Assembly (NCBI GenBank): GCA_964499275.1
Contig: CAZCKO010000001.1
Span: forward strand, 14,739-78,738
Length of the DNA stretch: 64,000 nt
Origin: an uncultured Rhodospirillaceae bacterium
Lineage (GTDB): Bacteria; Pseudomonadota; Alphaproteobacteria; MPNO01; UBA2964
Direction: 5' to 3'
Positions 33,571 through 52,723 of this stretch are shown here, piece by piece; within the stretch, counting starts at the first letter, position 1, and each line of letters begins with the position of its first letter. The translations under genes and the position numbers were made by a program. The notes below the pieces were generated by a model that saw only the letters and a program-made list of their open reading frames with translations, ran no database searches and was not told the origin of the DNA.

Positions 33571-34524
33571 TTACCCACCTTGTATTTTCTTATGGAGCAA
33601 TGTTTCTCCCATACCTTCGCCAAGGCTCCATTCCGCAAAATTTTCTGGGGTTGATTCCCATTCACGTGGTTCCCAATTATCATCGACTACATCAGAATCA
33701 AAATCATATTCTGCCGCTCCACCACATGGGTTTTTAAAGTACCAGAAATAACAGGAAGATATGGGATGACGACCTGGCCCAATCATGGTTTCCCAGCCTT
33801 TACGGGTCATATTATTTCCACCCCCGAAAAGCTCATGAATTGATCCAAGCTCAAACGCTAGATGATGGAAACCGCGTTGTCCTTTCCCTGGATCAAGCAA
33901 AAAAACGTTGTGATGGTTGTTAGCATCAGCACACCGAAAAAAATAACCGCGCCCTGGATAGGAATCCGTTAATTTAAAACCTAATCCATCAATATAAAAA
34001 TCTTTGTGCTTTTCCAGAGCGTCGGTCATAAAAACTATATGCGAGATCACTAAGGGTGACGCACAGCTATAAGCTGGCCCACGCTGATTAAGCCTATTGG
34101 CATTCCCCGGAACATTGATTTCGACTTCGGGCGCATTAGCTTGCGCACATTGTGTTGGTCTAAAAGCAATCCCAAAGCCCAATGGATCAACGCCGTGGAG
34201 TGTCCCGTCTTCGTCTATAATCACTCTTCCCTCAGCGGCCAGAATTGGTTCTAAAGCGTCGATGTCAGTGATTGAGTTTACGCCGAAGGTTACCTCCCGC
34301 ATTGTGGCAGTCTTATTTGGCCCAACGGGCGGTGGTAAATTAGGAGAATTTGGGGGAACTATCTCAATTTCCGCTCCATTTTGAGCAGAAAATACCGCCT
34401 GGTTATCTTTAACGTTTTTTAAAACGAGACCAAAATCTTTCCAGAACTTACATGCACCGTCCAGATCTTCAACGCCATATGTTACTCTCTCAATACCGGT
34501 ATGGTGCACCCTATACTCTCCCAA
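33571..34524 (-). CDS. Two-domain VOC-family extradiol ring-cleavage dioxygenase (catechol 2,3-dioxygenase-like)
   Basis: 317 aa. Duplicated glyoxalase-fold modules. HHLAFE metal-ligand motif in the C-terminal module. Confidence 0.7.
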   Translation of the reverse strand: MGEYRVHHTGIERVTYGVEDLDGACKFWKDFGLVLKNVKDNQAVFSAQNGAEIEIVPPNSPNLPPPVGPNKTATMREVTFGVNSITDIDALEPILAAEGRVIIDEDGTLHGVDPLGFGIAFRPTQCAQANAPEVEINVPGNANRLNQRGPAYSCASPLVISHIVFMTDALEKHKDFYIDGLGFKLTDSYPGRGYFFRCADANNHHNVFLLDPGKGQRGFHHLAFELGSIHELFGGGNNMTRKGWETMIGPGRHPISSCYFWYFKNPCGGAAEYDFDSDVVDDNWEPREWESTPENFAEWSLGEGMGETLLHKKIQGG

Positions 34525-34588: not shown

Positions 34589-35440
34589 TCACGGATTTGC
34601 AATAGTATCCACACCGGCCAGCTCGTCGCCCGGATTAACAATAAATGCCTCTCCACGAGAGAAAAAATCTCGTATAAGCGCGACAAACCTATCCGGTTGG
34701 TCAACCTCGATATTGTGTCCTGCATCGTATACATAAAGGAGCTTGGCTCTCGGGATCTCCCGCATCAGAAGCTGTCCACTTTCTGGTGGCATCATACCAT
34801 CCTTAGTTCCCTGCATGATAAGTGTCTGGCATTTTATGTTCTCAAGGTTTGAGACTAATGTTTCATCGAGCCCTATCGACTGATGATAATAGTTAGCCCA
34901 TTTACGACTTTCTGAAAGTTGCTTAGATGTTTTCTCACCTTCCGGAATACGCTCTGGATGGGCAAACATACGAGCTTGCATTTCCTCTGGGTTATCTGCC
35001 GGCCTATAGGGAATGTTTTTAGGCCGGAAGCCTGAGGGACATTGTGGAACCAAAAAACCTACCTTGTCTGCATGACGTACCGTAAACCACACTGATAGAA
35101 AACCCCCAAAAGATTGGCCAATAACATCGACTTTCTCGCCAATAACCTCATCCACAAAATCCGCTGCCAAATCAGCAAGGGCCGGCATGGTATCAATTCC
35201 ATCATGGGGCTTTGTGTTTTCAAAACCAGGAGCTACAAACATATAAATTCGGTAATTTTCAGCTAATTCATCTAATGCATAAGTAAACCTGATACCTCCA
35301 GCACTATGAAAATATAATATTGGCGGTCCATTGCCGGCGGCATAATAGGTCACGGGACCAGAAGAAAGATCGGCAATACATTTTTTAAAGACTCCGCCGG
35401 CCGGCCCTTCAATAATCATTTTGCTCCTTCCTTCTCCCAA
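34589..35440 (-). CDS. Alpha/beta hydrolase (meta-cleavage-product C–C hydrolase-like)
   Basis: GQSFGG nucleophile elbow. C-terminal DAGHNIEVDQPD His motif. Confidence 0.7.
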   Translation of the reverse strand: MGEGRSKMIIEGPAGGVFKKCIADLSSGPVTYYAAGNGPPILYFHSAGGIRFTYALDELAENYRIYMFVAPGFENTKPHDGIDTMPALADLAADFVDEVIGEKVDVIGQSFGGFLSVWFTVRHADKVGFLVPQCPSGFRPKNIPYRPADNPEEMQARMFAHPERIPEGEKTSKQLSESRKWANYYHQSIGLDETLVSNLENIKCQTLIMQGTKDGMMPPESGQLLMREIPRAKLLYVYDAGHNIEVDQPDRFVALIRDFFSRGEAFIVNPGDELAGVDTIANP

Positions 35441-35462: not shown

Positions 35463-36509
35463 TTACTTCTTTTTCTTCTTTTTACCACGCAGGACTGAAC
35501 GGAATTTCTTACCCAATCGCGCTTCATTCTTCATCCGCCAATCATAGGGCACGTCGATTACTTTCTTACCCTGTACGTATTTATACATATCACCCGACTT
35601 AGTACTGATAAGAGAATAGCCCCTAACATCATGGATAGTCTTTTGGCCGGGCTGTGATACTACCCAATAGCCCCAAAGTTTAGCTATATTTGGAGATTTA
35701 GAGTCTTTTACAATATAGGCACCCCTAGCAGCTAAGATTACCATATCCATATCAGGATGTTTAACTGGTGCGCCTTTGCGGATTTCGGCCCAGGCATCTG
35801 TACCCAAACCTATGGCATATTCGCCCGCTATAATTCTAGAACGTACGTCAGGGTAACGCGGTAAGGTCTTAATCTTTTGTTTTTTGAGTAGCGCCTGCAA
35901 ATACTGCTCAGCCTTCTTTTCCCCAAATGCATAAGAATAATAGATCCAAGGCGACGGTGAGCGTGGCATCGCCAACTTACCTTTCCATTTAGGTTTTAGT
36001 AAATCACTGTAACTCTTAGGTGCATCAGCCGACTTTACTAATTTGGTATTAATGGTCACCATGGTAAGGTAACTGTCATGAGTTTTGATGCCATACTCCC
36101 CCTGCATCAAGCTTTTAGATAATCCAAATTCCTTGGACCAATTAAATTTCACTATTGCATTATTTTTAATCAAATAACGGGGGCTGGAAGTCCAAAATAG
36201 GTCAAGGCCTGTAGGTACATTATTCTTAAGGGCTCGAACAACCTCAACACGCTTACGGGTATGACGGCCTCCAACCTGATTCAGTTTAATTTTGGTACCA
36301 TAAAATGAGTTGAACCCGTCATTCATCATCTTAACTTGCCGAGGATTCATTGTAGTGCCAAAGACTGTAGCTTCACCTTCCTTCACGGCAGCTGGAACCA
36401 ATTTTTTTACCGAGTTGGGAAGTTCAGCCGCAACTGCAAAGGTTACTGTGCTGGTTAGAAGGGTTAACCCTCCTAAAACGGTAGATATTTTGATATTAAT
36501 ATTCTTCAT
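35463..36509 (-). CDS. ABC transporter substrate-binding protein, Fe3+/thiamine/polyamine (type II PBP) family, with a C-terminal poly-Lys tail
   Basis: Signal peptide. FbpA/PotD-like fold. Ends ...RGKKKKKK. Confidence 0.65.
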   Translation of the reverse strand: MKNINIKISTVLGGLTLLTSTVTFAVAAELPNSVKKLVPAAVKEGEATVFGTTMNPRQVKMMNDGFNSFYGTKIKLNQVGGRHTRKRVEVVRALKNNVPTGLDLFWTSSPRYLIKNNAIVKFNWSKEFGLSKSLMQGEYGIKTHDSYLTMVTINTKLVKSADAPKSYSDLLKPKWKGKLAMPRSPSPWIYYSYAFGEKKAEQYLQALLKKQKIKTLPRYPDVRSRIIAGEYAIGLGTDAWAEIRKGAPVKHPDMDMVILAARGAYIVKDSKSPNIAKLWGYWVVSQPGQKTIHDVRGYSLISTKSGDMYKYVQGKKVIDVPYDWRMKNEARLGKKFRSVLRGKKKKKK

Positions 36510-36570
36510 CTTTTTCCTCCTGTTTCATAAAATTTGCCATTTCCAGACCCGGTCTCTCGCCAGGCTTAAC

Positions 36571-38361
36571 TTATTCTCCTAAACCATGCCTTTGTTTTCG
36601 GGTGGAACCGATTAGGGTGATAGCTGAGGACCCAATATCAGAGAGCCATTGGCGAGTAGAGCGACGTCGCCTAACGTCCACGCCTCTTATCTCCTGCATT
36701 CCGGTAATTCGTCTTGCAAAAAGAGCAAGAAGAACCAAAACAAAAATCATATAAATTGCTACCGCAGCCGCTGCATTTTGTTCTCCATTTGTTTGTAGGT
36801 TAAAAATTAGCGTAGCAACGACCTCTGAATTTCCTGTGTTCATCACCAGCGGTAGCGTAAGATCACGTGCTGCCAACATTCCTACCATTAATGCCGAATA
36901 GAAGATAGCAGGTGCCATGAGGGGCAAAAAAATTCGGCGAAAAGTGTCCAGCTTTGAAACTCCAGATACATAGGCAGCTTCGTCGAGTTCAAACTGAATT
37001 TGTAACGACGTTGCATTCATAGTTCGTGTACAATAGGCCAACATTCGTGTGCCCATGGCTATGGCAACGAGCCAAATGGTTCCGAACAATGGGAGCCAAT
37101 GATAAATAGCGATCCCCATAAACTGAAAAGCGACACCAGTAACAATTGTGGGAACTGCCGGTGCAAGAAAAACAATACTGTCCGCCCAATGTGCGGCTTT
37201 GTGTCGGCTGCGTGTGACCAACCATGTAATACTGGTAGCCAAACTAGATGCGATAATGACCGAACCCGCCATTAAAATTAGAGTGTTTTTAAGTGGTTCG
37301 CCTATCCAGTCAAGGGCGTCATAAAAACTGTTAAGATTGACCGAACTTAGTGCCTGAATTGACGGTGGCTGGAAAAAGGGTACCAACGCGACCCAAATGA
37401 TGGTGATAACTGGAATAATGATACTGGCAAGAAGCCACACCCCTACACAGGCATAAGCCGCCCATTTCCAGCGCCCGAGTGGCTGAGGTGCTGAAGCGCG
37501 AACCTTCCCACCCACTACAGCATACTTTTTAGCCTGCTTTAAAAACCGCGCATAAAATGCGATAGCGCCACTACAAATTGCGAAGAGAACAACACCCGCA
37601 GCACCTGCAAATCCGAGGTTAGGCGGGCCATCGGATTCAGCGATTGCGTCATAAATCCAAAGTACCAAGACATCTCCGGGCATTCCGATAATTGCAACGA
37701 AATCAAACATCTCAACCCCGATTACAAAATAGAAAATCGAAACAGCGACCATACTGGGTCCGAGGAGAGGAAGTACAATACGTCCAACGGTATGCGACTT
37801 CGAAACACCACTTACCCATGCTGCTTCCTCAAGTGAAGCATCAAGATTACGAAAGGCTGGGAGCATCATGAAAACACCCCCGGGCACGAGAACAATACCC
37901 TGTAAAAAACATATCCAGGATAGCTGATAGACATCAAATAGTGCCCCACCGCTAAATTTGGTCATATCGAAAAGCTGATTAACCAAACCTGATGTTGGAT
38001 TGAACAACCAAACATAAGACATTGCTGTAATAAATCCAGGGATAGCGAGTTTGGCAGTAAGCAAAGAAAACAGTCCGGTCCTGTAACGAAAATCGGTGCG
38101 GGCCAACAACCAAGCGAATGGAAAGGAAAAGACAAACATCCAGAATACGGTACCCACGCCTAACACTATAGTTCGACCGGTCACCCCACCTAATGTATCC
38201 TGAGAAAATAATTCGAAGTAATTTGCCAGCGAATATCGATCAATATCGCCTTCTTCACTGAAACTGGTGACAACATTACCAAAAACAGAAATGCACACCA
38301 TGAACAACCCCACCCCAGAGAGTAGGAAGACCCATCCTATACCGTAGGATCTATTCAACAC
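36571..38361 (-). CDS. Fused two-domain ABC transporter permease (FbpB/ThiP-like, about 12 TM)
   Basis: Duplicated permease domains with EAA-like motifs. Start placed at the GTG at 38361 (GGGAGG RBS, 11-nt overlap with the upstream ATPase). The ORF track runs to 38466. Confidence 0.7.
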   Translation of the reverse strand: MLNRSYGIGWVFLLSGVGLFMVCISVFGNVVTSFSEEGDIDRYSLANYFELFSQDTLGGVTGRTIVLGVGTVFWMFVFSFPFAWLLARTDFRYRTGLFSLLTAKLAIPGFITAMSYVWLFNPTSGLVNQLFDMTKFSGGALFDVYQLSWICFLQGIVLVPGGVFMMLPAFRNLDASLEEAAWVSGVSKSHTVGRIVLPLLGPSMVAVSIFYFVIGVEMFDFVAIIGMPGDVLVLWIYDAIAESDGPPNLGFAGAAGVVLFAICSGAIAFYARFLKQAKKYAVVGGKVRASAPQPLGRWKWAAYACVGVWLLASIIIPVITIIWVALVPFFQPPSIQALSSVNLNSFYDALDWIGEPLKNTLILMAGSVIIASSLATSITWLVTRSRHKAAHWADSIVFLAPAVPTIVTGVAFQFMGIAIYHWLPLFGTIWLVAIAMGTRMLAYCTRTMNATSLQIQFELDEAAYVSGVSKLDTFRRIFLPLMAPAIFYSALMVGMLAARDLTLPLVMNTGNSEVVATLIFNLQTNGEQNAAAAVAIYMIFVLVLLALFARRITGMQEIRGVDVRRRRSTRQWLSDIGSSAITLIGSTRKQRHGLGE

Positions 38362-39520
38362 GGGATGCACCCTCCCCCGCAAGGCCACCTTCCAAATCCT
38401 CAGACAACAAATTTTGAGCGGGTGTGACAACAACAGTATGATCGGGTGGAAAACATAAACTAACATTATCCCCCTTTTTTACAAAAAACTTATGATGACA
38501 TTTGACACGAATTGATTCTTTACAGGCTTCAACGGTGTGAACAAATCCTTCACCCACATAATCAGAGGCGACAACAATGCCTTTTATGACGTTATTGGAT
38601 TCTTTGCTCTCTACACTATTGATCTGGATATCCTCAGGCCGAACACCGAGGATACATGAATCACCAACTACAAAACCAGCCCCACTCGTTGCATGAGCTT
38701 GTAAATCTCCAAATGGCGTACCAACCTCTACATGGCGACCGTTACTCCCTTTAAACTTTGCCGAAAATATATTCATGTCACCTAAAAACCTAGCGACAAA
38801 CTCATTTTCTGGATGATGGTAGATAGTTTGCGGATCGTCTAATTGAACTATTTTTCCTTGCTCCATTACCGCAATTCGATCTCCTGTCTCAAGTGCCTCC
38901 GCCTGATTATGAGTGACGTGGACTGTTGTAAGGCGCAATTCGTGCATCAGATCACGCATTTGTGCACGCAACCTAATTTGTAATTTGAGGTCCAGGTTGC
39001 TAAGTGGTTCGTCCATCAACAGGACCCTAGGCCGCAGCGCAAGAGCGCGGGCAAGCGCCACGCGCTGCTGTTGACCTCCACTCAACGTTATAACCGGTCG
39101 GCGGGCCATCTCACCCATACCAAGCATTTCGAGGACTTCACCTACGCGCACCCGAATTTCATCGTCTGCCATCTTGGTTCGACCGCGACGTAAGGGAAAA
39201 GCTATATTCTCATATACGTCCATGTGAGGCCAAATTGCATAGGACTGGAAAACCATAGCGATGGGTCTACGATCTGGCGGTATGAAAAGTCCTGCTGCGG
39301 AGTCGAAGACTGGTTCTCCATCAATATGAATTGACCCCAACGACGGTCGCTCCAACCCGGCGATTGAACGTAACATGGTTGTTTTCCCGCAACCGGAAGG
39401 CCCAAGTAGCACAAAGAATTCGCCTTCCTCTATTTCTAGATTTATACCACGCAAGGCATGCACAACGCTGTCCCGCAAATCAAACTTTGCTTCCAACTCT
39501 TGTGTTTTCAAAATAGCCAT
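38351..39520 (-). CDS. ABC transporter ATP-binding protein with a C-terminal TOBE domain (FbpC/PotA-like)
   Basis: GPSGCGKTT, LSGGQQQRVALARAL, LLMDEPLSNLD. C-terminal TOBE-like region. Confidence 0.85.
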   Translation of the reverse strand: MAILKTQELEAKFDLRDSVVHALRGINLEIEEGEFFVLLGPSGCGKTTMLRSIAGLERPSLGSIHIDGEPVFDSAAGLFIPPDRRPIAMVFQSYAIWPHMDVYENIAFPLRRGRTKMADDEIRVRVGEVLEMLGMGEMARRPVITLSGGQQQRVALARALALRPRVLLMDEPLSNLDLKLQIRLRAQMRDLMHELRLTTVHVTHNQAEALETGDRIAVMEQGKIVQLDDPQTIYHHPENEFVARFLGDMNIFSAKFKGSNGRHVEVGTPFGDLQAHATSGAGFVVGDSCILGVRPEDIQINSVESKESNNVIKGIVVASDYVGEGFVHTVEACKESIRVKCHHKFFVKKGDNVSLCFPPDHTVVVTPAQNLLSEDLEGGLAGEGASRVE

Positions 39521-39541: not shown

Positions 39542-40555
39542 CTATAGTGGTCGCGCGAAGACCCCTTGTTTTTGCAGCCGTTCAATTGTTGCTTTAGTAG
39601 TTTCTTTGGTTGCTGGCCCGGTATTGGTCTCCATGAAGGTCTGTTTAGCGAACTCTTGACCAAATAACTCTGATTTTATTTGCGCCGGGTAGTTCATAAA
39701 AACCTCGGTGCGTCGTTTTCGTAACCTCTCCACATCGATCGTGGAGACCAGAACTGATTCGCCTGCCCCATCGATTTCCGAATCCACATTACCGAGATAA
39801 TTGATAACTTTCGAACAACCACGCGATGCCTGTGCAGCAATATACTTACTCTTAATAGCCCCAGCGTTTGCCGAGGCAAGATAGACAAAATTTTCATAGG
39901 CCCGCGACCGACGAGCCTGATCCAAAGTTTGAACCATCGGCCCGTTCCATTCAGCGGTAGGATGCAAAAGAATTTCCGCGCCATGAAAGGTAAGGACGCG
40001 GGAGAGCTCAAAAAAATTCATGTCGTGTTCGACCATCAAGGCTAATCGCCCATATGGCGTATCAAGGACAGGGAATAATGAGCCCTCCCCATAGCGTTCA
40101 ATATAATCGCTATATACATCAGCAGGAGAGGCGTTAGGAATAAGTCCCTCAACATTATGTTCATGAATTTTTCGATATCGAAGTTCTACATCCCCAGAAG
40201 GGCCTATAATAAAACCGGTTGTGAACCAAATTTCTGGCCATTCAGGGTCCTGTTCAAATGCAGCAGTTGCGATATAAACCTGCTGTTCTTTGGCAAAATC
40301 TCCAATTCGTGACGTTTCAGGTCCCGGAATTTGTATGCAGATCTCCTTCCAATCAGCCTCTCGACGGGTGTGGTTAAACCCTTGCAGCCACGCTTCCGGA
40401 AATACTATGACTTTTGCTTCATCACGAAGGATGGCGGTTTCGGCAATATTTAAACCTCGTTCGATATTCCGGCCAATAACAGAATCTCGATCTACTGGAT
40501 CGTCGATAACCTCGATGGCTGCCTGAATGCACGCTAATTGATATTGTTTTGTCAT
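39542..40555 (-). CDS. Carbon–nitrogen hydrolase (AmiE/aliphatic-amidase-like) paralog lacking the catalytic cysteine (Cys→Glu)
   Basis: Conserved Glu (VFPEAW) and Lys (RYRKIH) of the E-K-C triad are present. The position aligned to ALINCYD of the neighbouring paralog reads ALMVEHD. Confidence 0.7.
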   Translation of the reverse strand: MTKQYQLACIQAAIEVIDDPVDRDSVIGRNIERGLNIAETAILRDEAKVIVFPEAWLQGFNHTRREADWKEICIQIPGPETSRIGDFAKEQQVYIATAAFEQDPEWPEIWFTTGFIIGPSGDVELRYRKIHEHNVEGLIPNASPADVYSDYIERYGEGSLFPVLDTPYGRLALMVEHDMNFFELSRVLTFHGAEILLHPTAEWNGPMVQTLDQARRSRAYENFVYLASANAGAIKSKYIAAQASRGCSKVINYLGNVDSEIDGAGESVLVSTIDVERLRKRRTEVFMNYPAQIKSELFGQEFAKQTFMETNTGPATKETTKATIERLQKQGVFARPL

Positions 40556-40557
40556 GA

Positions 40558-41715
40558 TTAAGTCAGCGCCGTATTCTGTTTTTCTGGCTCCCGATCGTTC
40601 CCTAATTCCTCTGGCGGAGCATAAACACCATCACGCAAATAACGCGCAATAACTGCTTCGGTATTCTGGCGAGCTTCAGATTTATGGGCTATGGGATTTT
40701 CTAACCAATGATTAATGCCTGTGGCCTGATGTTTTTTATATTCTTTCGCATAAATCTCGGTCCGACTTTGGGCCAATACATTACCACGTATCTCAGTCCG
40801 TTTCTCACGAAGTGCTTTAAGATCGACAGGACCAATCGCCAAGGCTTCCCCAGGGTTAGGAGATTGACCAACTATTTTACCGTTAAAATCAACAATTTCT
40901 GATCCACCATGCGAACGATGCAGCGGTGCTATTTCACCACTACGACGCTGCTGGAAATTAAGTCCGGGGGAGTCAGCAAATACATCGCCTGAAACTTGTG
41001 CAACATACCCCCCATGATTTGATGAGATCACATACATACAATTTTCAAAAGCACGTGTACGTCTACTCATCTCCCATGAATCACGATGTGGCCCATAGGG
41101 CTCGCCTGTACAATGCAACAGGATTTCTGCTCCATATTGCGCAAATGTCCGCGGCATTTCTGGGAAATTTATGTCATAGCAATTTATCAGTGCGAGCCTA
41201 CCGATCTCTGTATCTACTACCGGAAATACAGCATTCTCACCCCCCTCTTGTTTAACATAAAGATCGTAAAGTCCGGTCGGAGTAGAATAGGTCGCATGTC
41301 CCTGAACATCAGCACCGTTCACCTTACGATAACGAAGTTCCAAGTCGCCGGTGGGGCCGAATAAATAAGCAGAGTTAAACCACCGACCAGGATATGCCGG
41401 ATCATATTCCATCGTCCCACCCGCTACATAAGCCTTATTTTGCTTAGCAAAGTCAGCTAAGGGTTCTAACTCTGGTCCGGGCACCTGGATTGCAATTTCA
41501 CACCATTCCTCAACGGAACGTACATGCTCAACACCGGTTAGGGAAAATTCTGGTAAAACGTAAAGCTTAGCCTGTCCCCACCGGCAACTAACATAATCCA
41601 TCAGCGATAGGTAACGATTAATATTTTCGCGAACTATGGCTTCACGCCACTCTGGCTCCCGCACATGCCGGATGATAGTCTGGACCGCAACAGCTGTATA
41701 TTTTTCGACCATCAA
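40558..41715 (-). CDS. Carbon–nitrogen hydrolase (AmiE/aliphatic-amidase-like), catalytic triad intact
   Basis: LPEFSLTG (Glu), RYRKVN (Lys), LALINCYDINFPE (Cys). A roughly 60-aa C-terminal extension. Confidence 0.75.
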   Translation of the reverse strand: MMVEKYTAVAVQTIIRHVREPEWREAIVRENINRYLSLMDYVSCRWGQAKLYVLPEFSLTGVEHVRSVEEWCEIAIQVPGPELEPLADFAKQNKAYVAGGTMEYDPAYPGRWFNSAYLFGPTGDLELRYRKVNGADVQGHATYSTPTGLYDLYVKQEGGENAVFPVVDTEIGRLALINCYDINFPEMPRTFAQYGAEILLHCTGEPYGPHRDSWEMSRRTRAFENCMYVISSNHGGYVAQVSGDVFADSPGLNFQQRRSGEIAPLHRSHGGSEIVDFNGKIVGQSPNPGEALAIGPVDLKALREKRTEIRGNVLAQSRTEIYAKEYKKHQATGINHWLENPIAHKSEARQNTEAVIARYLRDGVYAPPEELGNDREPEKQNTALT

Positions 41716-42917: not shown

Positions 42918-43057
42918 AGCCTCCGCTTCAGGGTAGCTTTACTACCCGCCTATTAATTCATCATAACAAAATCAACCTGGCGGGACGCACCGCCAAATGC
43001 CCTTTAATTTTGTGCGATTATTTACTTAACGCAATGGCTAATTACGTTATACCTGTT

Positions 43058-43073
43058 ATAGTTATATACTTAT
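43058..43073 (+). promoter_or_regulatory. Quasi-palindromic ATAGTTATATACTTAT (T-N11-A-type) candidate LysR box in the divergent promoter region
   Basis: Imperfect dyad (12/16) within a TTATA-repeat tract 30–45 nt upstream of the LysR ATG. Confidence 0.3.
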
Positions 43074-43102
43074 ATGTTAAAGACAAAGATGATATAAAGA
43101 AA

Positions 43103-44020
43103 ATGTACTCCATAACTTTACGACAGCTAGAAATATTCCGGACCGTCGTTGATGCTGGCTCGTTTAGTGCCGCCGCAGCTGCACTAAAAATTTCACAGCC
43201 CTCAGTTAGTATGCATATTAGGGCACTGGAGACACATTTACGGGAATTGGTTTTTGATCGTCATAAGGGTCAGTCTCCTGTTATTACTGATATCGGTCGC
43301 CGGGTTTATAACCACGCTGAGGAGATCCTTGCACAATCCAAACAAACGCTCTTAGATATTAAATCCCTCAAAACAGTTAAAGACAACGTGTTGTCATTTG
43401 CTGCCCATCGTTTTATTGGGAACCATCTTTTATCCAAACCATTAGCGAATTTTGCAAAACAAAATCCTGGAATCGAAATTATTGCTAATATTGGAGCACT
43501 TGATCAGGCAGTTGAAATGATCCGGAAGCGGGATGTAGACCTTGGTCTTTACCTAGCGAATGGACAAACAAAAGAGGTTATTTCAAAAATTTTAGGGCAT
43601 CAGAAGCTGGCCTTCATTGCTTCCGTCGATCACCCTTTAGCTTCTGGCCAAAACTTGCGTTATCGTGACCTTGCTGAGCACCCCTTCATTGGACCGGTAA
43701 GGGGCACGGATTATGCCAAATTGCTTCAAGGGGTTTTTTATGAGGCGGGTTTTACTAAACACAATACCATAACGCAGTCTCAAAATACTTTGATCCGACG
43801 CGAATTAATTTTATCAGGTGTTGGGTTTTCTTGTATTCTTCAATCTGGCTGGACTGATGATCTCAATATTGGACAATTAGTAGTTCTAGATATGGCTGAA
43901 AATACGCTCTCACTCGAAGTAAGGGTAGGTTCATTATTAGATCGAGAAATTAGCGCCGCATCCCAACAGTTTCTGGAGTATCTAAACCAACTTAGCATCG
44001 AAGGCTATTTCGATGGTTAA
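43103..44020 (+). CDS. LysR-family transcriptional regulator
   Basis: N-terminal HTH (LRQLEIFRTVVDAGSFSAAAAALKISQPSVSMHIRALE) and C-terminal substrate-binding domain. Start at the ATG at 43103. The ORF track starts 93 nt upstream. Confidence 0.85.
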   Translation: MYSITLRQLEIFRTVVDAGSFSAAAAALKISQPSVSMHIRALETHLRELVFDRHKGQSPVITDIGRRVYNHAEEILAQSKQTLLDIKSLKTVKDNVLSFAAHRFIGNHLLSKPLANFAKQNPGIEIIANIGALDQAVEMIRKRDVDLGLYLANGQTKEVISKILGHQKLAFIASVDHPLASGQNLRYRDLAEHPFIGPVRGTDYAKLLQGVFYEAGFTKHNTITQSQNTLIRRELILSGVGFSCILQSGWTDDLNIGQLVVLDMAENTLSLEVRVGSLLDREISAASQQFLEYLNQLSIEGYFDG

Positions 44021-44026
44021 GCATGT

Positions 44027-44806
44027 TCACATACCACAACGTTTTAAGCGAGATGACCAATCTTTTGCATAACTCCAATCTCTTACGTTACGTGCAAAAA
44101 TTTTTTGCTTATTAATTTGTTGAACACAACACAAAGCAAGACACAACATACAAGACAACACTAAAGGACCTGCATCGTTGGCAACATCTGCGATAGGCCT
44201 GAGGGTTGGCATGCCAGTGCCTAACAGTACGATTGCATCATGTTCTGGACCACGAAGGTGTGTTAATGCCTCAGACGCATTTTGAGCTCGCAAACTATAA
44301 ATGGGATGAAAATCACTTTGCTCGTTAAAAGCACTGACCACGTGACCAACCTCAAAACCATGGCTGGACCAGTATTCAGCACTTGCCTCCGTCAATTTCG
44401 GGGGATAGCAGGAAACAAATCCGATTTTCCGCGCCCCAATTGCATTGAGTGCTTCCACTACAGCTAGCCCCGTCGTTATAGCGGGAACGCCAGCACGATT
44501 ACTCCAACGTTCAACTAATTCTGCCTCACGGGCACGACCGACAAGGTATGACGCGCCCGTGCAACCGACTGCAATCGCATCAATAGGGGCATTAGCAAAC
44601 TGCCCGAGAGTGCTTTCCAACCCTTCATAATAATCAATTAATCGGGCTTCTATAGTATCTTCCGAACTAGTTAACCGGGCTGTTATAGTGCTGATGCCCC
44701 GGGGCATCAAAATTTGCATCTCTGGCTCGACTGTTGTGTTGGCTTGTGGCACCAGAACTCCGACCAAACCGCGGGGTGCATATTCCAAAGACAAGCAAAC
44801 CTCCAT
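44027..44806 (-). CDS. Arylmalonate decarboxylase / maleate isomerase / Asp-Glu-hydantoin racemase superfamily protein
   Basis: N-terminal GVLVPQANTTVEPE. First catalytic-site motif AVGCTGAS has Cys. Second pseudo-symmetric motif reads LLGTGMP (Gly, not Cys). Confidence 0.6.
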   Translation of the reverse strand: MEVCLSLEYAPRGLVGVLVPQANTTVEPEMQILMPRGISTITARLTSSEDTIEARLIDYYEGLESTLGQFANAPIDAIAVGCTGASYLVGRAREAELVERWSNRAGVPAITTGLAVVEALNAIGARKIGFVSCYPPKLTEASAEYWSSHGFEVGHVVSAFNEQSDFHPIYSLRAQNASEALTHLRGPEHDAIVLLGTGMPTLRPIADVANDAGPLVLSCMLCLALCCVQQINKQKIFARNVRDWSYAKDWSSRLKRCGM

Positions 44807-44884
44807 CTATGAAGTTATAATCAACTATAAAAGAAAATTACTCAGACTAAATAGCGGTGCAAACTAACTATAAATTAACCTAGA

Positions 44885-46096
44885 TTACAGTAGATCCGGA
44901 AACATATTTGTATCCGTCTCATGAGAATTACCGTCTTTGAACACCCTAGCAGGCACCCAAATTTTTGACGGCTTTATCTCTTCACCCTCCGAATCAGACA
45001 TTTTATGCCTGCTGGAATGCGGTTCCAAAATAGTCATATCTGCAACACTGCCTTTGGCCAAAGTACCTATTTCATTCTCTGAGTTTAGAATAACCGCGGG
45101 CGAGTAGGTTAAACACCTAACGGCCTCATTTAATGGAAGCCCTAACTCTATCAGCCTGTTAAATGCACCAGCGAGGCTATAGTCCAATTTTGAAAAATCA
45201 TGATACGCATTGAAGTCCCCATGCAGATCACTGCTAATCGTATGTGGCGGGTACCCCTTTTCTAACATCATACGAGCTATTCTATACGAAAAATTAATTC
45301 CGTATCCGACATCAAATTTGATTCCGCGGTCATATGCGGCGCTTACACAATCGGGAACGGCATTTGCTCCACCAACCACGCCATCTGGCATATTGCTGTA
45401 AACATGCGCTACGACATCACCAGGTCGCAAATATTGTAGCGTTTTTTCAACTACTGACCTGGGCTCAGGACGCTTCGCATCATCCACCGGGAATAATTCC
45501 CCTGTGTGAACATAAAGGGGTATATCACAGCGCTCTCCGGCCTCTATCGCCTGTTGAAGTACAACCGTATCCCAATGGGAAAGGCCACCAGATTCTCCGT
45601 GGGATTTAATCCCGCAAATCATATCAGGATGACGTTCATACGCATTTACGATTTCTTCAATGCGAGTCATTTGTGGCCCATGCAGGGTAGTCCCCTCCAT
45701 GCCGCCCATTAACGCCCCGGCAAGGTTCGCCGAAACGAAACACCTTACATCGGTAATCGCCTCTTTGCGGATATAGGCCTCAAACCCACCCGCTGTCCAG
45801 GGACCAGAGCTTCCTTGATCAACTACTGTTGTTGCTCCGGAATTAATCCCTGCCTTGTCGGCCGAAATACCAAAATTGGTTACCCATTCATAAACATGGA
45901 CATGCAAGTCTATAAATCCTGGGCAAACAACTTCACCAACAAAATCTATTTGTTCCTTGGATTGTAATGTTGAATCCAATTCCGTACTGAAATACTCAAT
46001 CCTGCCGTTTTTTATACCAATTATCGCCGGTCCAAAATAATCAATAGATGGATCACAAACCGTTTGAGCAGTTATCACCGTATCAAAAATTGTCAT
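44885..46096 (-). CDS. Dihydroorotase-like metal-dependent amidohydrolase (COG3964-type)
   Basis: PGFIDLHVHV metal-binding motif. Start at the ATG at 46096, forming an ATGA overlap with the upstream M20 gene. Confidence 0.65.
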   Translation of the reverse strand: MTIFDTVITAQTVCDPSIDYFGPAIIGIKNGRIEYFSTELDSTLQSKEQIDFVGEVVCPGFIDLHVHVYEWVTNFGISADKAGINSGATTVVDQGSSGPWTAGGFEAYIRKEAITDVRCFVSANLAGALMGGMEGTTLHGPQMTRIEEIVNAYERHPDMICGIKSHGESGGLSHWDTVVLQQAIEAGERCDIPLYVHTGELFPVDDAKRPEPRSVVEKTLQYLRPGDVVAHVYSNMPDGVVGGANAVPDCVSAAYDRGIKFDVGYGINFSYRIARMMLEKGYPPHTISSDLHGDFNAYHDFSKLDYSLAGAFNRLIELGLPLNEAVRCLTYSPAVILNSENEIGTLAKGSVADMTILEPHSSRHKMSDSEGEEIKPSKIWVPARVFKDGNSHETDTNMFPDLL

Positions 46097-47340
46097 AACA
46101 CTTCTTGCATGTTGGCCAACTGGACTAACGTGGTGCACAGCACCTTGGTACCTGCCAAAATGTCACTTTGATTGGTATATTCATTGATGTTGTGACTGAC
46201 CCCATCACATGACGGTACAAAGATCATACCCGAAGGACAAAAATAACTCATTTGACGCGCATCATGACCAGCACCTGAGAAAATACGTCGGCAGGGTAGA
46301 TCAAGATGTTTCGCCTCCTCTTCAATTGCCGAGATAACCTTCTCATTAAATTTAATGGTATCCGCCTCCGCAATACACCAAACATCTGATGAGCATTTCG
46401 ATACAGTTTGGGCCACTAAGTCTCTGACTTTTTTTTCACAATCCAATAGAACTTCGGAATCCGGGTGTCGTAAATCTATAGAAAAAACAACTTCGCTAGC
46501 AACAACTGAAGGCACATTTGGTTCTATTGTTAGCATACCGACTGTAAAACGAATGTCTTCAATAGTTGAAAACACTGTGTACATTTTTTCTATTGTTCTT
46601 GACGCCTCTTCAATCGCATCTTTTCTTAGATCGTAGGGTGTCGTCCCGGCATGGGCTTCATCTCCAATAATCTTCACCCGCATACGCCTGACCCCCTGTA
46701 TTCCGGTAACGGCACCAATGGGGATGCATTCTTTTTCTAGAATGGGACCTTGCTCAATATGTGCCTCTATAAAACAGTACACATCTCTTCCGAATGGAAC
46801 ATTTTTGATGCCCGGTAAATGATCTTGAAGTTTCAGGAGTTCATCCCCGACTGATACCCCTGTTTTATCCTTCACAGCCTTTATCTCTGATATTGGTTTG
46901 ACACCAACATATGCCTCGGATCCCATCATGCCAGGAGCAAACCGGGACCCCTCTTCGTTCATCCAGGCCACTATTTCGATACTTCTTCTGTGTTCTGTCC
47001 TTGAATTGATAATTGCCCGGGCCGCTTCTAGGCCTGCAAGGATACCAAAAGCACCATCAAACTTCCCACCGGTCGGCTGAGTATCAAGGTGCGAACCAGT
47101 CATAACTACCGGCAGATCGGGCTCATTCCCCTCAATGCGAAAAAAAAGGTTACCCACATCGTCGGCAGTTATTTTAAGCCCATATGCTTCTGCCCATGAT
47201 ATACAAAGATCACGTGCCGCAAATTCTTCCGAGGTAAGGGCTTGCCGATTAACCCCCCCGCCTTCAATGCCGCCAATTTCAGCTAGCTCCATCAAATTCG
47301 ACCAGAGCCTTTCAGATTCAATATATTCCGCAAGAGCCAT
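46093..47340 (-). CDS. M20-family Zn-hydrolase of the N-carbamoyl-L-amino-acid hydrolase / allantoate amidohydrolase / beta-ureidopropionase group
   Basis: 415 aa. GSHLDTQPTGGKFDGAFGILAGLEA signature of the AmaB/AllC family. Confidence 0.75.
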   Translation of the reverse strand: MALAEYIESERLWSNLMELAEIGGIEGGGVNRQALTSEEFAARDLCISWAEAYGLKITADDVGNLFFRIEGNEPDLPVVMTGSHLDTQPTGGKFDGAFGILAGLEAARAIINSRTEHRRSIEIVAWMNEEGSRFAPGMMGSEAYVGVKPISEIKAVKDKTGVSVGDELLKLQDHLPGIKNVPFGRDVYCFIEAHIEQGPILEKECIPIGAVTGIQGVRRMRVKIIGDEAHAGTTPYDLRKDAIEEASRTIEKMYTVFSTIEDIRFTVGMLTIEPNVPSVVASEVVFSIDLRHPDSEVLLDCEKKVRDLVAQTVSKCSSDVWCIAEADTIKFNEKVISAIEEEAKHLDLPCRRIFSGAGHDARQMSYFCPSGMIFVPSCDGVSHNINEYTNQSDILAGTKVLCTTLVQLANMQEVL

Positions 47341-47349
47341 GTGCCACTC

Positions 47350-48237
47350 TTAAATTTTTTTCAGTCCAGAAAGCAAAGCCGACTTTCCCAAGTAATCTTT
47401 CTTAGCTGACCAGTTACCCGACTCTGCCATAGCCAAAAACTCAGATAACATTAAATTGGTCAAAGTCGGCTCCTCTAAGTTGACGGTGTGCCCAGTGCGT
47501 GGCATCACACATAACCCTGACATTGGTAAGGTCCGTTTGAGATAAATTGACGGCTCAATGCACCACTCGTCTTCATCACCCACAATGATCAGGGCTGGGG
47601 CATTTACCTTAAGAATATCCTCTTCAAGGTCGTAAAGTGAAGGACGCTTTCGTTGTACACCTAGCATAGTCAGTGCAGCGCCTTGTTTCGAGTGACTGGC
47701 CAACCGGCCTTTGAATGCTTCCCATCCCTTGAAGTCTTTGGTTTTAAATTGTTGTCTAAATGCACCATTCGCATAAAGCTCGGCCATTTCCTCTGAACCA
47801 AGCTCAACGTATTTTTCAGCTAACATTTCTGCATCTTTGGCATATGCTTCCTGCTGGTCCTTGGGAGCGCCATAACCACATGAAATCAATGCTATAGATG
47901 AGGTTTTTTCTGGATACAAGATGGCAAAATGAAGGGCGGCAAAGCCTCCCATCGAACAGCCAATAATATGTGCCGATTTTAGTGAATACCCCTCAAGGAC
48001 TGAATTAATATCCTCAGCGGCAATTTTTTGGGAGTACAGTTCGGGATCCTCCGGTACATCTGATGGTGGATATCCGCGCGCATTGAACGTAATGCATTTG
48101 TATCGCCGCGAGAGAGCGGAAACTTGCATAGACCAGCTTTCAAGGTTATCAGCGAATTCATGAACAAATATGATCGCAGCGCCTTCTCCATACGCTTCCG
48201 TATAAAGCTTGGCACCATTAGCTTCAATTAAAGTCAT
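47350..48237 (-). CDS. Alpha/beta hydrolase
   Basis: GCSMGG nucleophile elbow. 295 aa. Confidence 0.65.
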   Translation of the reverse strand: MTLIEANGAKLYTEAYGEGAAIIFVHEFADNLESWSMQVSALSRRYKCITFNARGYPPSDVPEDPELYSQKIAAEDINSVLEGYSLKSAHIIGCSMGGFAALHFAILYPEKTSSIALISCGYGAPKDQQEAYAKDAEMLAEKYVELGSEEMAELYANGAFRQQFKTKDFKGWEAFKGRLASHSKQGAALTMLGVQRKRPSLYDLEEDILKVNAPALIIVGDEDEWCIEPSIYLKRTLPMSGLCVMPRTGHTVNLEEPTLTNLMLSEFLAMAESGNWSAKKDYLGKSALLSGLKKI

Positions 48238-48239
48238 AT

Positions 48240-49028
48240 TTAAATAGCCTTTACTTGTCCGCCATCTATATCGAAAGAAGCGCCGGTTATATAAGTCGCC
48301 CTATTAGAAGCTAAAAACACAACCAATGCTGCAAGCTCATCTGGCTCGCCATAACGCTTCAAAACTGTTTCCGCGGTCAATATAGCGGTTGCTTCTTTAA
48401 CAGAAATTTGATCCTCTTTCGCTTTTTCCTCTGCAAGATAGATCATTCGATCCGTAGCGAATGGGCCAGGGTTTATCACGTTACACAAAATACCATCTGG
48501 GGCACCTTCTTCTGAAAGTGCCTTACTAATATTTTGAAGAGCAGCGTTAGAAAATCCTGCAGTTATGGCATGAGCATGAGGCTGCCGGCCATGCGTTCCC
48601 GCCATAAAAAGGATACGCCCGCCATTACCTACCGACTGCATTACCCCAAATGCCTCACGTGCCAACCTGATTTGGGCGAATACTTTGGTCTCGGCAGCCT
48701 CGCGCCACATATCGTCTGTCATCTCTAGAAATGGTGCGGTAGCCGCACCGGCTGAATTTGCAATCAAGACGTCAAGTCCATGTTTCCTTGAAACCTCTTC
48801 AATCATGGAGATGGATTGTTCGGCTGATGTCACGTCGCATATGCAGCCTTCAACAACCCCGCAAGTTTCCGCATTCAAATTTTTAACTGCAAAATTGACC
48901 TTTTCCTCATTTCGCCCCGACAGCGTTACCGTTGCACCTTCCAACGCAAACATTCTCGCAATGGAATATCCCAAACCGCTACTAGCTGCACTGACGATGA
49001 CCGACTTTCCTTCAAGCCCCAATTCCAT
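48240..49028 (-). CDS. SDR-family NAD(P)-dependent oxidoreductase
   Basis: N-terminal SAASSGLG dinucleotide-binding motif. 262 aa. Confidence 0.75.
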   Translation of the reverse strand: MELGLEGKSVIVSAASSGLGYSIARMFALEGATVTLSGRNEEKVNFAVKNLNAETCGVVEGCICDVTSAEQSISMIEEVSRKHGLDVLIANSAGAATAPFLEMTDDMWREAAETKVFAQIRLAREAFGVMQSVGNGGRILFMAGTHGRQPHAHAITAGFSNAALQNISKALSEEGAPDGILCNVINPGPFATDRMIYLAEEKAKEDQISVKEATAILTAETVLKRYGEPDELAALVVFLASNRATYITGASFDIDGGQVKAI

Positions 49029-49061
49029 TATTAGCCTCGCTATAAGATATTTTAAATTATT

Positions 49062-50195
49062 TCACGAATGATTACCTTTGCTCGCACATTTTTCAAAGAC
49101 TTTCGGAAACTCTGAACAAAATAAACCAGCCCATTCCTCTGGTACTGTGGTCGAAATTTTAAGAAACAAATTTTTCAAAGTGTCACTATGATAGTCAGAG
49201 GTTCTAATAAAAAATCCCCGGTTGAGTAATTCGTCTGCAATAGAATTTGCAGAAACCCCGCTATCTTGGCAATCAACAGCTAAAAAATTCCCATTAGAAG
49301 GATATACAACGGGGCGTAGCCCCTCTAAGGGCTCTAGCATTCTATTAATCGATTCCTGATTTCGCCTTTGTACCAGGTTAACACCCTCCATCCACTCATC
49401 CTTTACCTCGAATGCCGCCACCGCAGCCAACTGCCCGAGAATATTTGAACCGAGGATATTGGGCTGATCTTCCATTAAATGCGTAAATATTTTCTTATCC
49501 GCTACTACAGCGCCAGTGCGCAGACCAGCGATACCAAGCCATTTACTGAAGCTATATGTCGTGATGGTCCTCTCAGGATAAAGATCTCGGACCAAAAAAT
49601 GATTAAAGGCGAAGTCGCGATAAGTGCAATCGTGTACAATTACAGCTCCGAATTTTCTTGCAGCATCTACGATTTCCGTCAACTCATCCAACCCATAGCA
49701 AGAACCAAGTGGATTAAGTGGGTCAATCAAATAAATAATAGCGTTATCACTAATGGAGAGTTGTTCTTCAAGTTCTCGGGCATCAATCTTATAATCCTTA
49801 CCCTCATCATAAATAGGTAACCGGCAGATATCAGCACCTTCATTCTGACTAAATTTCAGCGGCCATACCCAAGTGGGATCACTTGTAATCAGCGTTGTCG
49901 TCTTATTACTCATTCTCTTGCAAACGAGATACAAACCCTCGACTGCACCATCTGTTATAAGCACCTGTGTCTCCCCGGATGCCTCCGGCCCTATTAAATC
50001 GAGTAATATCTGTTCACGGAGTTTCTCTAAACCTTGCGGCGGCGCATAAAGGTTATAACTCTGGTCGTCGATACCTTTTATAAGCGCCTCTTTTACTAAC
50101 GGGTGGGCAGGCAAATGGTTGGTGTTTTGTCCCATCCAAAGCATGTCTTGGCTTCTATGCAGGGCATCAAAAGTTCGTGTGCTTTGAATTGTCAT
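49062..50195 (-). CDS. PLP-dependent aminotransferase, class I/II
   Basis: SFSKWLGIAGLRTG with the Schiff-base Lys. 377 aa. Confidence 0.75.
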   Translation of the reverse strand: MTIQSTRTFDALHRSQDMLWMGQNTNHLPAHPLVKEALIKGIDDQSYNLYAPPQGLEKLREQILLDLIGPEASGETQVLITDGAVEGLYLVCKRMSNKTTTLITSDPTWVWPLKFSQNEGADICRLPIYDEGKDYKIDARELEEQLSISDNAIIYLIDPLNPLGSCYGLDELTEIVDAARKFGAVIVHDCTYRDFAFNHFLVRDLYPERTITTYSFSKWLGIAGLRTGAVVADKKIFTHLMEDQPNILGSNILGQLAAVAAFEVKDEWMEGVNLVQRRNQESINRMLEPLEGLRPVVYPSNGNFLAVDCQDSGVSANSIADELLNRGFFIRTSDYHSDTLKNLFLKISTTVPEEWAGLFCSEFPKVFEKCASKGNHS

Positions 50196-50215
50196 ATCAG
50201 AAAAATGAGGCCTAC

Positions 50216-51016
50216 CTAAGACGCGTCTTTACCGGAAAATATTCGTAAGACGATAAATTCAACACAAACGAGACCAGTGAACAAAATCAATCCCACTATT
50301 AACAAAAAGGTTATTGCCGACAGTGCCAGTGCTGTCTCCAGACCAGAGGCCGCAAAGCTTATGAGATAACCTATTCCAGATTGGGCCGTTACAAACTCAC
50401 CAACGACTACTCCAATGATTGTGAGCGTCAGTCCAATTCTCAGTCCAGTAAAAATCATCGGAAGAGCAAAAGGCAATCTCACAGAGAAGAATGTTTGCCA
50501 TCTACCCGCTGTAAGTGATTCACAAAGCTTTAAATATGTAACACCAGTATTGAGCAACCCAGTTGATGATGCCACTACAATAGGGAAAAGAGCGAGACAC
50601 ATCCCGTAGGCTAGTCTCGCCTCTGTGCCAACTCCAAACCATAGAATGAATAGAGGGGCCAGTGCGATGGTGGGTATAAGGTTAAATAACACAAGATTAG
50701 GAAAAATCGCCCGACGCGCAATATAGGAGACTGTAATTAAACAGGATAAAGATAAACCCAAAATGGTAGAAAAAATAAAAGCCGCAAAACACTCATAAAG
50801 TGTGCCCAAAGCATGCCCCCACATAAATTTGCGCTGAGCTATGAAGAGGTCAACCACATCACCGGGTGGGGGTAATATGATTGTCGGTACAAATTTTTGA
50901 TCAACAAGGTGCTGCCACAAAAACACAATCACAGCAAAAAATGCGACCGGGAGAATGATCTGCCGGAAATTTGTGAAGATGTTCAGTCGCAACTTGTTTA
51001 AAATTAAATCGAGCAT
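50216..51016 (-). CDS. ABC transporter permease, NitT/TauT (SsuC-like) family
   Basis: 266 aa, six TM, binding-protein-dependent permease EAA region. Confidence 0.75.
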   Translation of the reverse strand: MLDLILNKLRLNIFTNFRQIILPVAFFAVIVFLWQHLVDQKFVPTIILPPPGDVVDLFIAQRKFMWGHALGTLYECFAAFIFSTILGLSLSCLITVSYIARRAIFPNLVLFNLIPTIALAPLFILWFGVGTEARLAYGMCLALFPIVVASSTGLLNTGVTYLKLCESLTAGRWQTFFSVRLPFALPMIFTGLRIGLTLTIIGVVVGEFVTAQSGIGYLISFAASGLETALALSAITFLLIVGLILFTGLVCVEFIVLRIFSGKDAS

Positions 51017-51050
51017 TCTTTCCTAAATTTCATTCCATAAGAGACACTGT

Positions 51051-51836
51051 TTATTGATTGCCAAACCAAACCTGTAAGCGGTAGCTCGCAAAAGCGATCA
51101 AGGAATAGAAAAAGAGACCCACGAAACACAGGAATAAAACCGTGGCTATCATTAAATCCGTTTGTAATTGGCCAAACGCTACCAAAATCAAAAATCCAAG
51201 TCCTTGTGAGGAAGTAATAAACTCACCCACAATTACTCCAATCATTGCCATGGTTATACTCATCTTCATTGCACTTATCAGATAGGGTAATGCAAAAGGA
51301 AATCTAACCAGAAACAAGGTTTGCAATTTTGACGCCGTTAAAGACTCACAAAGCTTTAAAAGACTGGGGTCGGTATTCTTTAGACCAGCGGTCATACTTA
51401 TAATTATCGGGAAAATACTTATAAAAACAGCAAAACCCAGGCGAGACTCAAATTCGATACCGAGCCAAAGAACAAACATGGGAGCCCACGCGATCTTGGG
51501 AACAATCTGAAAACCAACAATATTTGGATAGAGAGCATCCTTGGCCCACGGCGACCAAGTCATCAAAAGCGCTAAAAACAGACCAATAATACTTGCTAGG
51601 AGAAAACCGCCGAGCGCCACCGACGCCGTCGGTAAAATGTTCTTCGTTATAAGATCCCAATTATCAAAAATGGCAACTACAACCGCGCTTGGCCGTGGCA
51701 AAATTGATTTAGGATAATTTGTATACCAGGTAAAAAATTCCCAAATCCCAATCACTGACAAAAACAATAGAACCGGGAGGAAACTATCACGTACTCCGGT
51801 CAAAAACGAATTCTTAGGATTTGGCAAGGCACTCAT
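51051..51836 (-). CDS. ABC transporter permease, NitT/TauT (SsuC-like) family
   Basis: 261 aa, paralogous to the adjacent permease. Confidence 0.75.
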   Translation of the reverse strand: MSALPNPKNSFLTGVRDSFLPVLLFLSVIGIWEFFTWYTNYPKSILPRPSAVVVAIFDNWDLITKNILPTASVALGGFLLASIIGLFLALLMTWSPWAKDALYPNIVGFQIVPKIAWAPMFVLWLGIEFESRLGFAVFISIFPIIISMTAGLKNTDPSLLKLCESLTASKLQTLFLVRFPFALPYLISAMKMSITMAMIGVIVGEFITSSQGLGFLILVAFGQLQTDLMIATVLFLCFVGLFFYSLIAFASYRLQVWFGNQ

Positions 51837-51856
51837 CTACTAATTTTCTTTGATTG

Positions 51857-52669: not shown

Positions 52670-52723
52670 CGTAAAGGTTTGCAGAAAAATAGTTTAGTGA
52701 ACACGCGGACAACATCATAGGTT

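Follow-up and report, generated by a model that had tools for sequence, protein, structure and literature searches.

A candidate enzyme/pseudoenzyme amidase of the nitrilase superfamily encoded by tandem genes in an uncultured Rhodospirillaceae bacterium

The window analyzed here is a 64,000-nucleotide (nt) stretch of contig CAZCKO010000001.1 (GenBank assembly GCA_964499275.1, positions 14,739 to 78,738), assigned to an uncultured Rhodospirillaceae bacterium. Its minus strand carries two adjacent genes for paralogous C-N hydrolases, called A and B in this work. Gene A (40558..41712) encodes the putative catalytic CN_hydrolase subunit of 384 amino acids (aa) with an intact Glu-Lys-Cys (E-K-C) triad. 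Gene B (39542..40555) encodes a Cys-less paralog of 337 aa, in which Glu176 stands at the position of the catalytic Cys. We propose that A and B form an obligate hetero-oligomeric amidase with B as a pseudoenzyme subunit, within an uncharacterized catabolic operon, and we put the probability of this reading at roughly 0.7. The physical association of the two proteins is what we infer from their sequences, predicted fold, conservation, synteny and natural gene fusions. The original prediction took the two genes to be translationally coupled and offered two roles for B, either as part of a hetero-oligomer or with chemistry of another kind. The comparative evidence favors the first, a noncatalytic partner, because of the constant A-B gene order, the 2-nt spacer, the purifying selection on B, the mirrored trees of the two lineages, the sister clades that are both degenerate and paired, and the fusions; altered chemistry is kept as a lesser rival.

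Both open reading frames (ORFs) lie on the minus strand as originally placed, and the gap between them is exactly 2 nt. At the junction (40556..40560, minus strand) the letters read ...ACT TAA TC ATG ACA..., in which the TAA stop codon of A (40558-40560) is followed by the spacer TC (40556-40557) and the ATG of B at 40555. No clear ribosome-binding site for B is found there. Gene A was listed from a TTG start codon (40558-41715), and the next codon is an ATG at 41712. The start of the 384-aa protein is most likely this ATG rather than the TTG at 41715, because a Shine-Dalgarno-like run (AGGGGGGG) lies before it and the N-termini of the orthologs (MVEKYTAV...) match. Both proteins belong to the Pfam family CN_hydrolase (PF00795, cut-off 23.2 bits), with scores of 132.3 bits for A and 96.6 bits for B. 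As paralogs they share 34% aa sequence identity over 367 columns (BLASTP, E = 1e-75). The Glu, Lys and nucleophile motifs quoted in the original prediction are all present in the pair (VFPEAW / VLPEFSL, RYRKIH / RYRKVN and GRLALMVEHDMNFFE / GRLALINCYDINFPE).

The nucleophile position is GRLALINCYD in A (Cys178, codon TGC at 41179-41181) and GRLALMVEHD in B (Glu176, codon GAA at 40028..40030, minus strand), in pairwise and multiple alignments alike. B retains the other two triad residues, Glu54 (codon at 40394..40396, minus strand) and Lys129 (codon at 40169..40171, minus strand). The catalytic Glu-Lys-Cys triad is found in A, and B reads E54-K129-E176 instead. In HMMER alignments of B to solved structures of characterized family members, Glu176 lines up with the catalytic Cys of both mouse Nit2 (2w1v, '...gicyd...') and the B. 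cereus formamidase AmiF (5g3o, '...cichd...'). The AlphaFold model of B, built with 103 homologs, has a predicted local distance difference test score (pLDDT) of 93.1 and a predicted template modeling score (pTM) of 0.92. It shows the alpha-beta-beta-alpha sandwich fold with a nucleophile elbow (strand-turn-helix), in which helix 176-180 begins with E176, straight after strand 169-173. A Foldseek search with this model returned Nit2, AmiF, the aliphatic amidase AmiE, carbamoylases and beta-ureidopropionase as the best matches (probability 1.00). B has three Cys residues (C9, C73 and C247), none of them within the elbow; C73 is also present in Cys-containing relatives and C247 is not conserved. 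Pairwise and multiple alignments, the alignments of hidden Markov models to Protein Data Bank entries and the model agree that Glu has replaced the triad Cys in the downstream paralog, as first claimed, and with four independent alignments in agreement the idea of a misaligned Cys site was rejected. By descent and predicted fold B is a member of the nitrilase superfamily, but judged by its active-site residues it is not a canonical enzyme there.

A search of 5.8 billion proteins with B found 162 relatives. Among them is a clade with Glu at the Cys site (E clade) of 65 sequences, namely B and 64 database relatives with 61 to 97% sequence identity. E54, K129 and E176 are kept in 65 of the 65 sequences. 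Only 22% of the columns in the E-clade alignment are invariant, and all three triad positions are among them. The Glu codon of the orthologs is GAA in some and GAG in others, so Glu has been kept through synonymous change. The ratio of nonsynonymous to synonymous substitution rates (dN/dS) in unsaturated ortholog pairs is 0.06-0.28 for B and 0.02-0.09 for A. These values come from the closer pairs of Binatia only; between the window and its nearest relatives the synonymous sites are saturated and dS is undefined. By these ratios B is under purifying selection. It has the two features expected of a pseudoenzyme, an essential catalytic residue lost and purifying selection retained. Pairwise protein distances of A and of B are correlated (r = 0.94), with B evolving about 1.6-fold faster than A. 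Because E54, K129 and E176 are all invariant against 22% of the columns, the remnant pocket of B appears to be still constrained in the E clade and may have a role in ligand binding or altered chemistry. The original prediction had named two findings that would speak against it, a Cys of the 337-aa protein at the elbow and a decaying gene; both were looked for and neither was encountered.

Loci of the B lineage were collected by a profile scan of one genome per prokaryotic species and by contig look-ups. In 24 of the 24 loci with enough upstream DNA, an A-type gene with the Cys is found directly upstream of the B-type gene. Together with natural A-B fusions, this amounts to obligatory co-occurrence with an active paralog. 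The 'stop NN ATG' junction with its 2-nt spacer recurs across the E-clade loci, and the spacer is mostly 2 nt over all paired loci. The loci are on metagenome-assembled genomes (MAGs) labeled Rhodospirillaceae, Rhodospirillales, Pseudomonadota, Candidatus Binatia, Deltaproteobacteria, Syntrophobacterales and Thermodesulfobacteriota; the scan and look-ups found no cultured organism among them. The nearest relative in the genome collection is an uncultured Rhodospirillaceae MAG, with a B protein only 85% identical, which indicates that the collection has no genome of the source species. A copy 100% identical to A (P0121) is found on public metagenome contigs. The G+C content of the window is about 45%, and proteins identical to A and B occur on such contigs of up to 135 kb.

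Pairing extends beyond the Glu-containing proteins. In a sister clade of B (42 to 48% identity to B, about 341 aa), Gly stands in place of the Cys and Gln in place of the Lys (G/Q clade); it is also preceded by an A-type gene, 53% identical to the A of the window, in an unrelated neighborhood. In another locus (L034) the gene after an A-lineage member (52% identity) encodes a 298-aa partner that reads K-L-G at the triad positions. In a neighbor-joining tree of the domains, B with the E clade, the G/Q clade and the second domains of the fusion proteins P0222 and P0167 (P0222_d2 and P0167_d2) form one lineage, and their partners form a mirrored A lineage. On this sequence comparison, what is constant among the relatives is the partnership of A and B and not the Glu. 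More distant pairs (L028, 6001-9377; L029, 4055-6208) were also noted, in which a 357-aa E-K-C enzyme is encoded with a partner of 350-358 aa. That partner has kept the Cys, with Arg for the catalytic Lys and 'CME' in place of 'CYD', and it looks like a different route of degeneration in the same two-subunit design.

In some relatives the two domains are fused into one chain. In P0167 (624 aa) an A-type E-K-C domain precedes a B-like one with S-R-D at the triad positions. P0222 (713 aa) combines an A-type domain (48% identity to A) with a B-type domain (43% to B) and has E-K-C in both. The order is reversed in P0186, P0189, P0192 and P0201, with a degenerate N-domain and a catalytic C-domain. 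When 1.84 billion cluster representatives were searched with B by phmmer, 2988 relatives were found, of which 137 have E <= 1e-30. The best 150 of the 2988, taken as representatives of 50%-identity clusters, were sorted into classes: 54 are canonical single-domain E-K-C proteins, about 44 are tandem two-domain proteins, and about 50 are single-domain proteins with a degenerate triad (E-R-C, E-K-A, E-R-S, E-K-S, E-K-G, Q-K-A, E-K-E, V-K-E and others). Nearly all tandem proteins among these 150 have one E-K-C or E-K-S domain and one degenerate domain, and only two are intact in both halves. At the Cys site of the degenerate tandem domains Gly is the most common residue, and Lys, Asn, Asp, Ala, Val, Gln and Glu are also found. 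The original prediction had called a co-encoded Cys-less paralog unusual for this family. This holds for the characterized nitrilase superfamily, but not within this clade, where a degenerate partner is the rule.

The AlphaFold (AF2) model of P0167 has pLDDT 85.7 and pTM 0.88 over 624 residues, with an ordered inter-domain linker; disorder is confined to an insertion specific to the A lineage (239-265) and the C-terminal tail. Such a pTM would be unlikely unless the two domains were set confidently against each other, and the model predicts one compact body. The A-lineage insertion is about 21 residues long (VAQVSGDVFADSPGLNFQQRRSGEIAPLH; residues about 237-265 of A). It goes with a longer C-terminal tail, and neither feature is found in B or in the 357-aa relatives. 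In the P0167 model the corresponding segment is the sole disordered internal region.

Two groups of relatives differ from the pairs and fusions described above. Within the single-domain relatives there is an E-R-S clade, one member of which (P0219; L036/L037, 4001-5146) adjoins an acyl-CoA dehydrogenase gene; no second CN_hydrolase gene was found near the P0219 locus. The E-R-S clade may represent a variant with a Ser nucleophile and not a dead partner. The second group (P0096, P0097 and P0230; 584 aa; L004/L005, 8001-9755) consists of tandem CN_hydrolase fusions without Cys in either domain. They have a degenerate N-domain and a Glu-Lys-Ser C-domain, the latter 44 to 45% identical to the B of the window, and have no neighboring CN_hydrolase gene at their loci.

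We propose the following model for the pair. The basic unit would be an A:B pseudo-dimer in which A, with its intact E-K-C, holds the sole hydrolytic (thiol) site. B has lost the thiol nucleophile (Cys to Glu176) and kept the fold, and it would provide the partner surface that normally comes from a second identical chain. B is predicted to be without catalytic activity because the nucleophile is lost and the sister clades show further losses in the triad. Through the 2-nt 'stop NN ATG' junction, B would be translated in coupling with A, and the two proteins would be made in amounts of about 1:1; termination-reinitiation coupling is probable from the junction sequence. Presumably, a homo-oligomeric enzyme was duplicated, and each copy came to depend on the other before either had lost its activity, a stage represented by P0222. 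The B lineage would then have lost its catalytic residues in various ways, with Glu in the E clade, Gly and Gln in the sister clade, and Asp, Gly, Lys, Asn or Ala elsewhere. At this site Cys is encoded by TGC/TGT, Gly by GGC and Glu by GAR, and therefore Gly is a one-step intermediate between Cys and Glu. We infer from these codons the order Cys to Gly to Glu. The invariant E54-K129-E176 may form a buried charge network that stabilizes the empty site, or it may bind a ligand or a moiety of the substrate.

Several points weigh against this model. The A/B pair of the window is known from its sequence, and its pairing has been modeled only through the fusion P0167. The pTM of P0167 comes from an alignment of only 8 fusions, and the interface itself was not seen. 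The domain tree has no support values, and correlated A and B distances are expected for any two genes with a common genome history. Lone degenerate relatives such as P0219 indicate that degeneracy does not always come with a partner. If positions were independent, E54, K129 and E176 would all be invariant by chance with a probability of about 0.01, and a pocket that is still doing something, in binding or chemistry, fits this better than a pure scaffold does.

The last point leads to the alternative in which B is an active enzyme with altered chemistry. Glu176 would act as a general base, nucleophile or water activator in another step of the same pathway, and A and B would be two sequential enzymes, associated or not. 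The invariance of the triad positions in the 65 E-clade sequences, a Glu kept through synonymous codon change, the strongly purifying selection on B, and motif residues around the site that are like those of active enzymes ('EHD' in B and 'CHD' in AmiF) all agree with it. In contrast, in the sister clade, where partner and gene order are unchanged, the site is occupied by Gly and the Lys is lost too. Other B-lineage and fused partner domains have D, G, K, N, A, V or Q there, often with loss of E and K as well. These varied losses point to a role of the B lineage that is independent of triad catalysis, and the 1.6-fold faster evolution of B than of A also argues against an active enzyme. We know of no nitrilase-superfamily enzyme with a carboxylate in place of the Cys, and none was found in the literature searched. 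On balance, altered chemistry is unlikely. A specific form of it, in which Glu176 is a new catalytic residue for thiol-independent chemistry and A/B is a channeled enzyme with two activities, is likewise considered unlikely. Examples of such chemistry would be general-base hydrolysis, hydration, decarboxylation or tautomerization of the product of A or of the flavin monooxygenase encoded upstream. If true, the nitrilase superfamily would have its first active site based on a carboxylate.

B could also be a regulatory, ligand-sensing subunit, a special case of the noncatalytic partner, in which the pocket binds substrate, product or effector without turnover and exerts allosteric control on A. 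The invariant E-K-E pocket and the obligatory pairing with A are consistent with this role. A precedent within the superfamily is beta-ureidopropionase, which is reported to be cooperatively regulated by substrate and product through its oligomeric state, loops and subunit interfaces (PMC10741476). The G/Q, K-L-G and S-R-D partners, however, persist with a dismantled pocket, so regulation through the pocket is not the general role of the lineage, and we regard it as improbable for B.

That A and B are independent homo-oligomers, merely co-transcribed, with B a relic or a binding protein of unrelated function, is very unlikely. The matched solved structures of the nitrilase superfamily are all single-sequence entries, and adjacency alone is no proof of interaction. 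On the other hand, catalytic and degenerate domains have been fused naturally and repeatedly, in both orders, and the AF2 model of one such fusion is compact. The A-B order and the 2-nt spacer are invariant across distant lineages while other neighbors change, and the A and B lineages mirror each other in the tree. A decaying pseudogene, for which one could cite the lost Cys and the faster evolution of B, is refuted by full-length ORFs in at least 60 clusters at 90% identity (down to 61% identity), the dN/dS values, the invariant triad remnants and the confident, well-folded model.

The hetero-oligomer of A and B would act within an operon that is probably regulated by a divergent LysR-type gene (43010..44020, plus strand), which is found in the same position in L006, L007 and L030-L033. 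The first gene of the operon encodes a luciferase-like (LLM) flavin monooxygenase (PF00296; 41760..42917, minus strand) and ends 47 nt upstream of the ATG of A. Three genes downstream of B (35463..39520, minus strand) encode an ABC importer of the polyamine / 2-aminoethylphosphonate / Fe(III) type. Its ATPase (38351-39520) is PotA-like and carries a TOBE domain, its permease (listed as 36571-38466) is a fused double one, and the third protein (35463-36509) is the substrate-binding component. Genes for an alpha/beta hydrolase (34589-35440, minus strand) and a VOC/glyoxalase-family protein (33571-34524, minus strand) form the tail of the cluster. The permease ORF overlaps the ATPase ORF by 116 nt (38351-38466); its true start is probably further downstream than listed, because matches to orthologs begin at about residue 25-42 of the ORF.

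The order LLM monooxygenase, A, B, ABC ATPase, fused permease and binding protein is that of the Glu-clade operon. The LLM gene is syntenic with A-B in E-clade loci of both Rhodospirillaceae-like and Binatia MAGs, and the ABC genes are kept directly downstream of B in E-clade loci. The alpha/beta hydrolase and VOC protein genes often come after the ABC genes, and both families are so placed in the Binatia locus L001. The LysR, arylmalonate-decarboxylase-like and PRK09237-like amidohydrolase genes stand beside the operon only in Rhodospirillaceae-like versions. No NCBIfam equivalog was found for any gene of the operon (LLM, A, B, binding protein and neighbors), all scores being below the cut-offs. 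The enzyme probably hydrolyzes an intermediate, with an amide or carbamoyl group, of a nitrogenous compound that is taken up by the importer. Past the LysR gene the window has a second catabolic gene block on the minus strand (44027-53842), encoding an arylmalonate-decarboxylase/Asp-Glu-racemase-like protein, a PRK09237-type amidohydrolase, an M20 peptidase, an alpha/beta hydrolase, an SDR protein, a class I/II aminotransferase and another ABC importer. Of this block only the first two genes travel with the LLM-A-B operon, and only in Rhodospirillaceae-like MAGs.

Models of mechanism and oligomerization for the characterized enzymes of the superfamily assume equivalent active subunits. The locus in the window points to a whole uncharacterized bacterial clade, found in MAGs and metagenomes only and mostly Binatia and Rhodospirillales-like, in which a live and a dead subunit together appear to make up the functional unit, produced from coupled genes or as one fused chain. 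If confirmed, A and B would be the first enzyme/pseudoenzyme heteromer of the superfamily. The clade would then offer a natural series from homomer to obligate heteromer to the loss of one site (both halves active, Gly, then Glu, Asp and others). In public records these proteins are named 'nitrilase-related carbon-nitrogen hydrolase', 'predicted amidohydrolase' or 'hypothetical protein'. The automated 'amidohydrolase' and 'nitrilase-related' labels, by which each gene is now counted as an enzyme, would need correcting. For biocatalysis, A expressed alone may fail, so that mining of the clade would need both genes.

The closest solved relatives of the pair are Nit2/omega-amidase (2w1v), AmiF (2dyu, 5g3o) and AmiE (2uxy, 2plq). 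Their fold is that of B (Foldseek probability 1.00, E about 1e-21 to 1e-23), yet sequence identity is only 16 to 24% (E about 1e-12 to 1e-20). The motif layout is shared, with the full E-K-C in A and a residue-for-residue alignment of B through the triad motifs. Orthology to AmiF or AmiE was rejected for A and B, since their NCBIfam scores are far below the cut-offs: 82.2 bits for A and 74.1 bits for B against 406 for the formamidase equivalog (NF009803), and 54.5 and 37.2 bits against 427 for the aliphatic amidase equivalog (NF009802). Neither protein is an AmiE or AmiF ortholog, and 'amidase' is therefore only a generic label here. In Nit2, AmiF and AmiE all subunits are the same chain and each has the Cys, whereas the locus described here has two co-evolving chains, one of them without the Cys.

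In the literature searched (full text), we found no description of bacterial heteromeric, tandem or Cys-less nitrilase-superfamily proteins, and the only heteromeric enzymes of the superfamily that turned up are plant NIT4A/NIT4B. In Sorghum, NIT4A/B1 and NIT4A/B2 are nitrilase-superfamily complexes of two paralogous subunits, and a comparison with the consensus sequences surrounding the E-K-C triad assigned grass NIT4A and NIT4B to the branch-1 nitrilases (PMC5154151). The likeness to A/B lies in the two paralogous subunits; the NIT4 proteins are eukaryotic branch-1 nitrilases and, unlike A and B, their genes are neither operonic nor fused. Presumably, both NIT4 subunits keep the Cys, and the heteromer alters the substrate range and is not a pairing of a live with a dead subunit. 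A further comparison is with the enzyme-pseudoenzyme complexes of other families. Trypanosomatid deoxyhypusine synthase is reported to hetero-oligomerize with a dead paralog that is retained under selection (PMC3663545), and plant PDX1.2, an impaired paralog likewise retained, to form a hetero-oligomer with its active relative PDX1 (bioRxiv 10.1101/717082). Both are eukaryotic and have other folds and chemistry, and neither belongs to the nitrilase superfamily. For the pair described here, activation of A by B is only a hypothesis. Pseudoenzyme partners are well known in other families; what would be new here is one inside the nitrilase superfamily, and not a new class of system.

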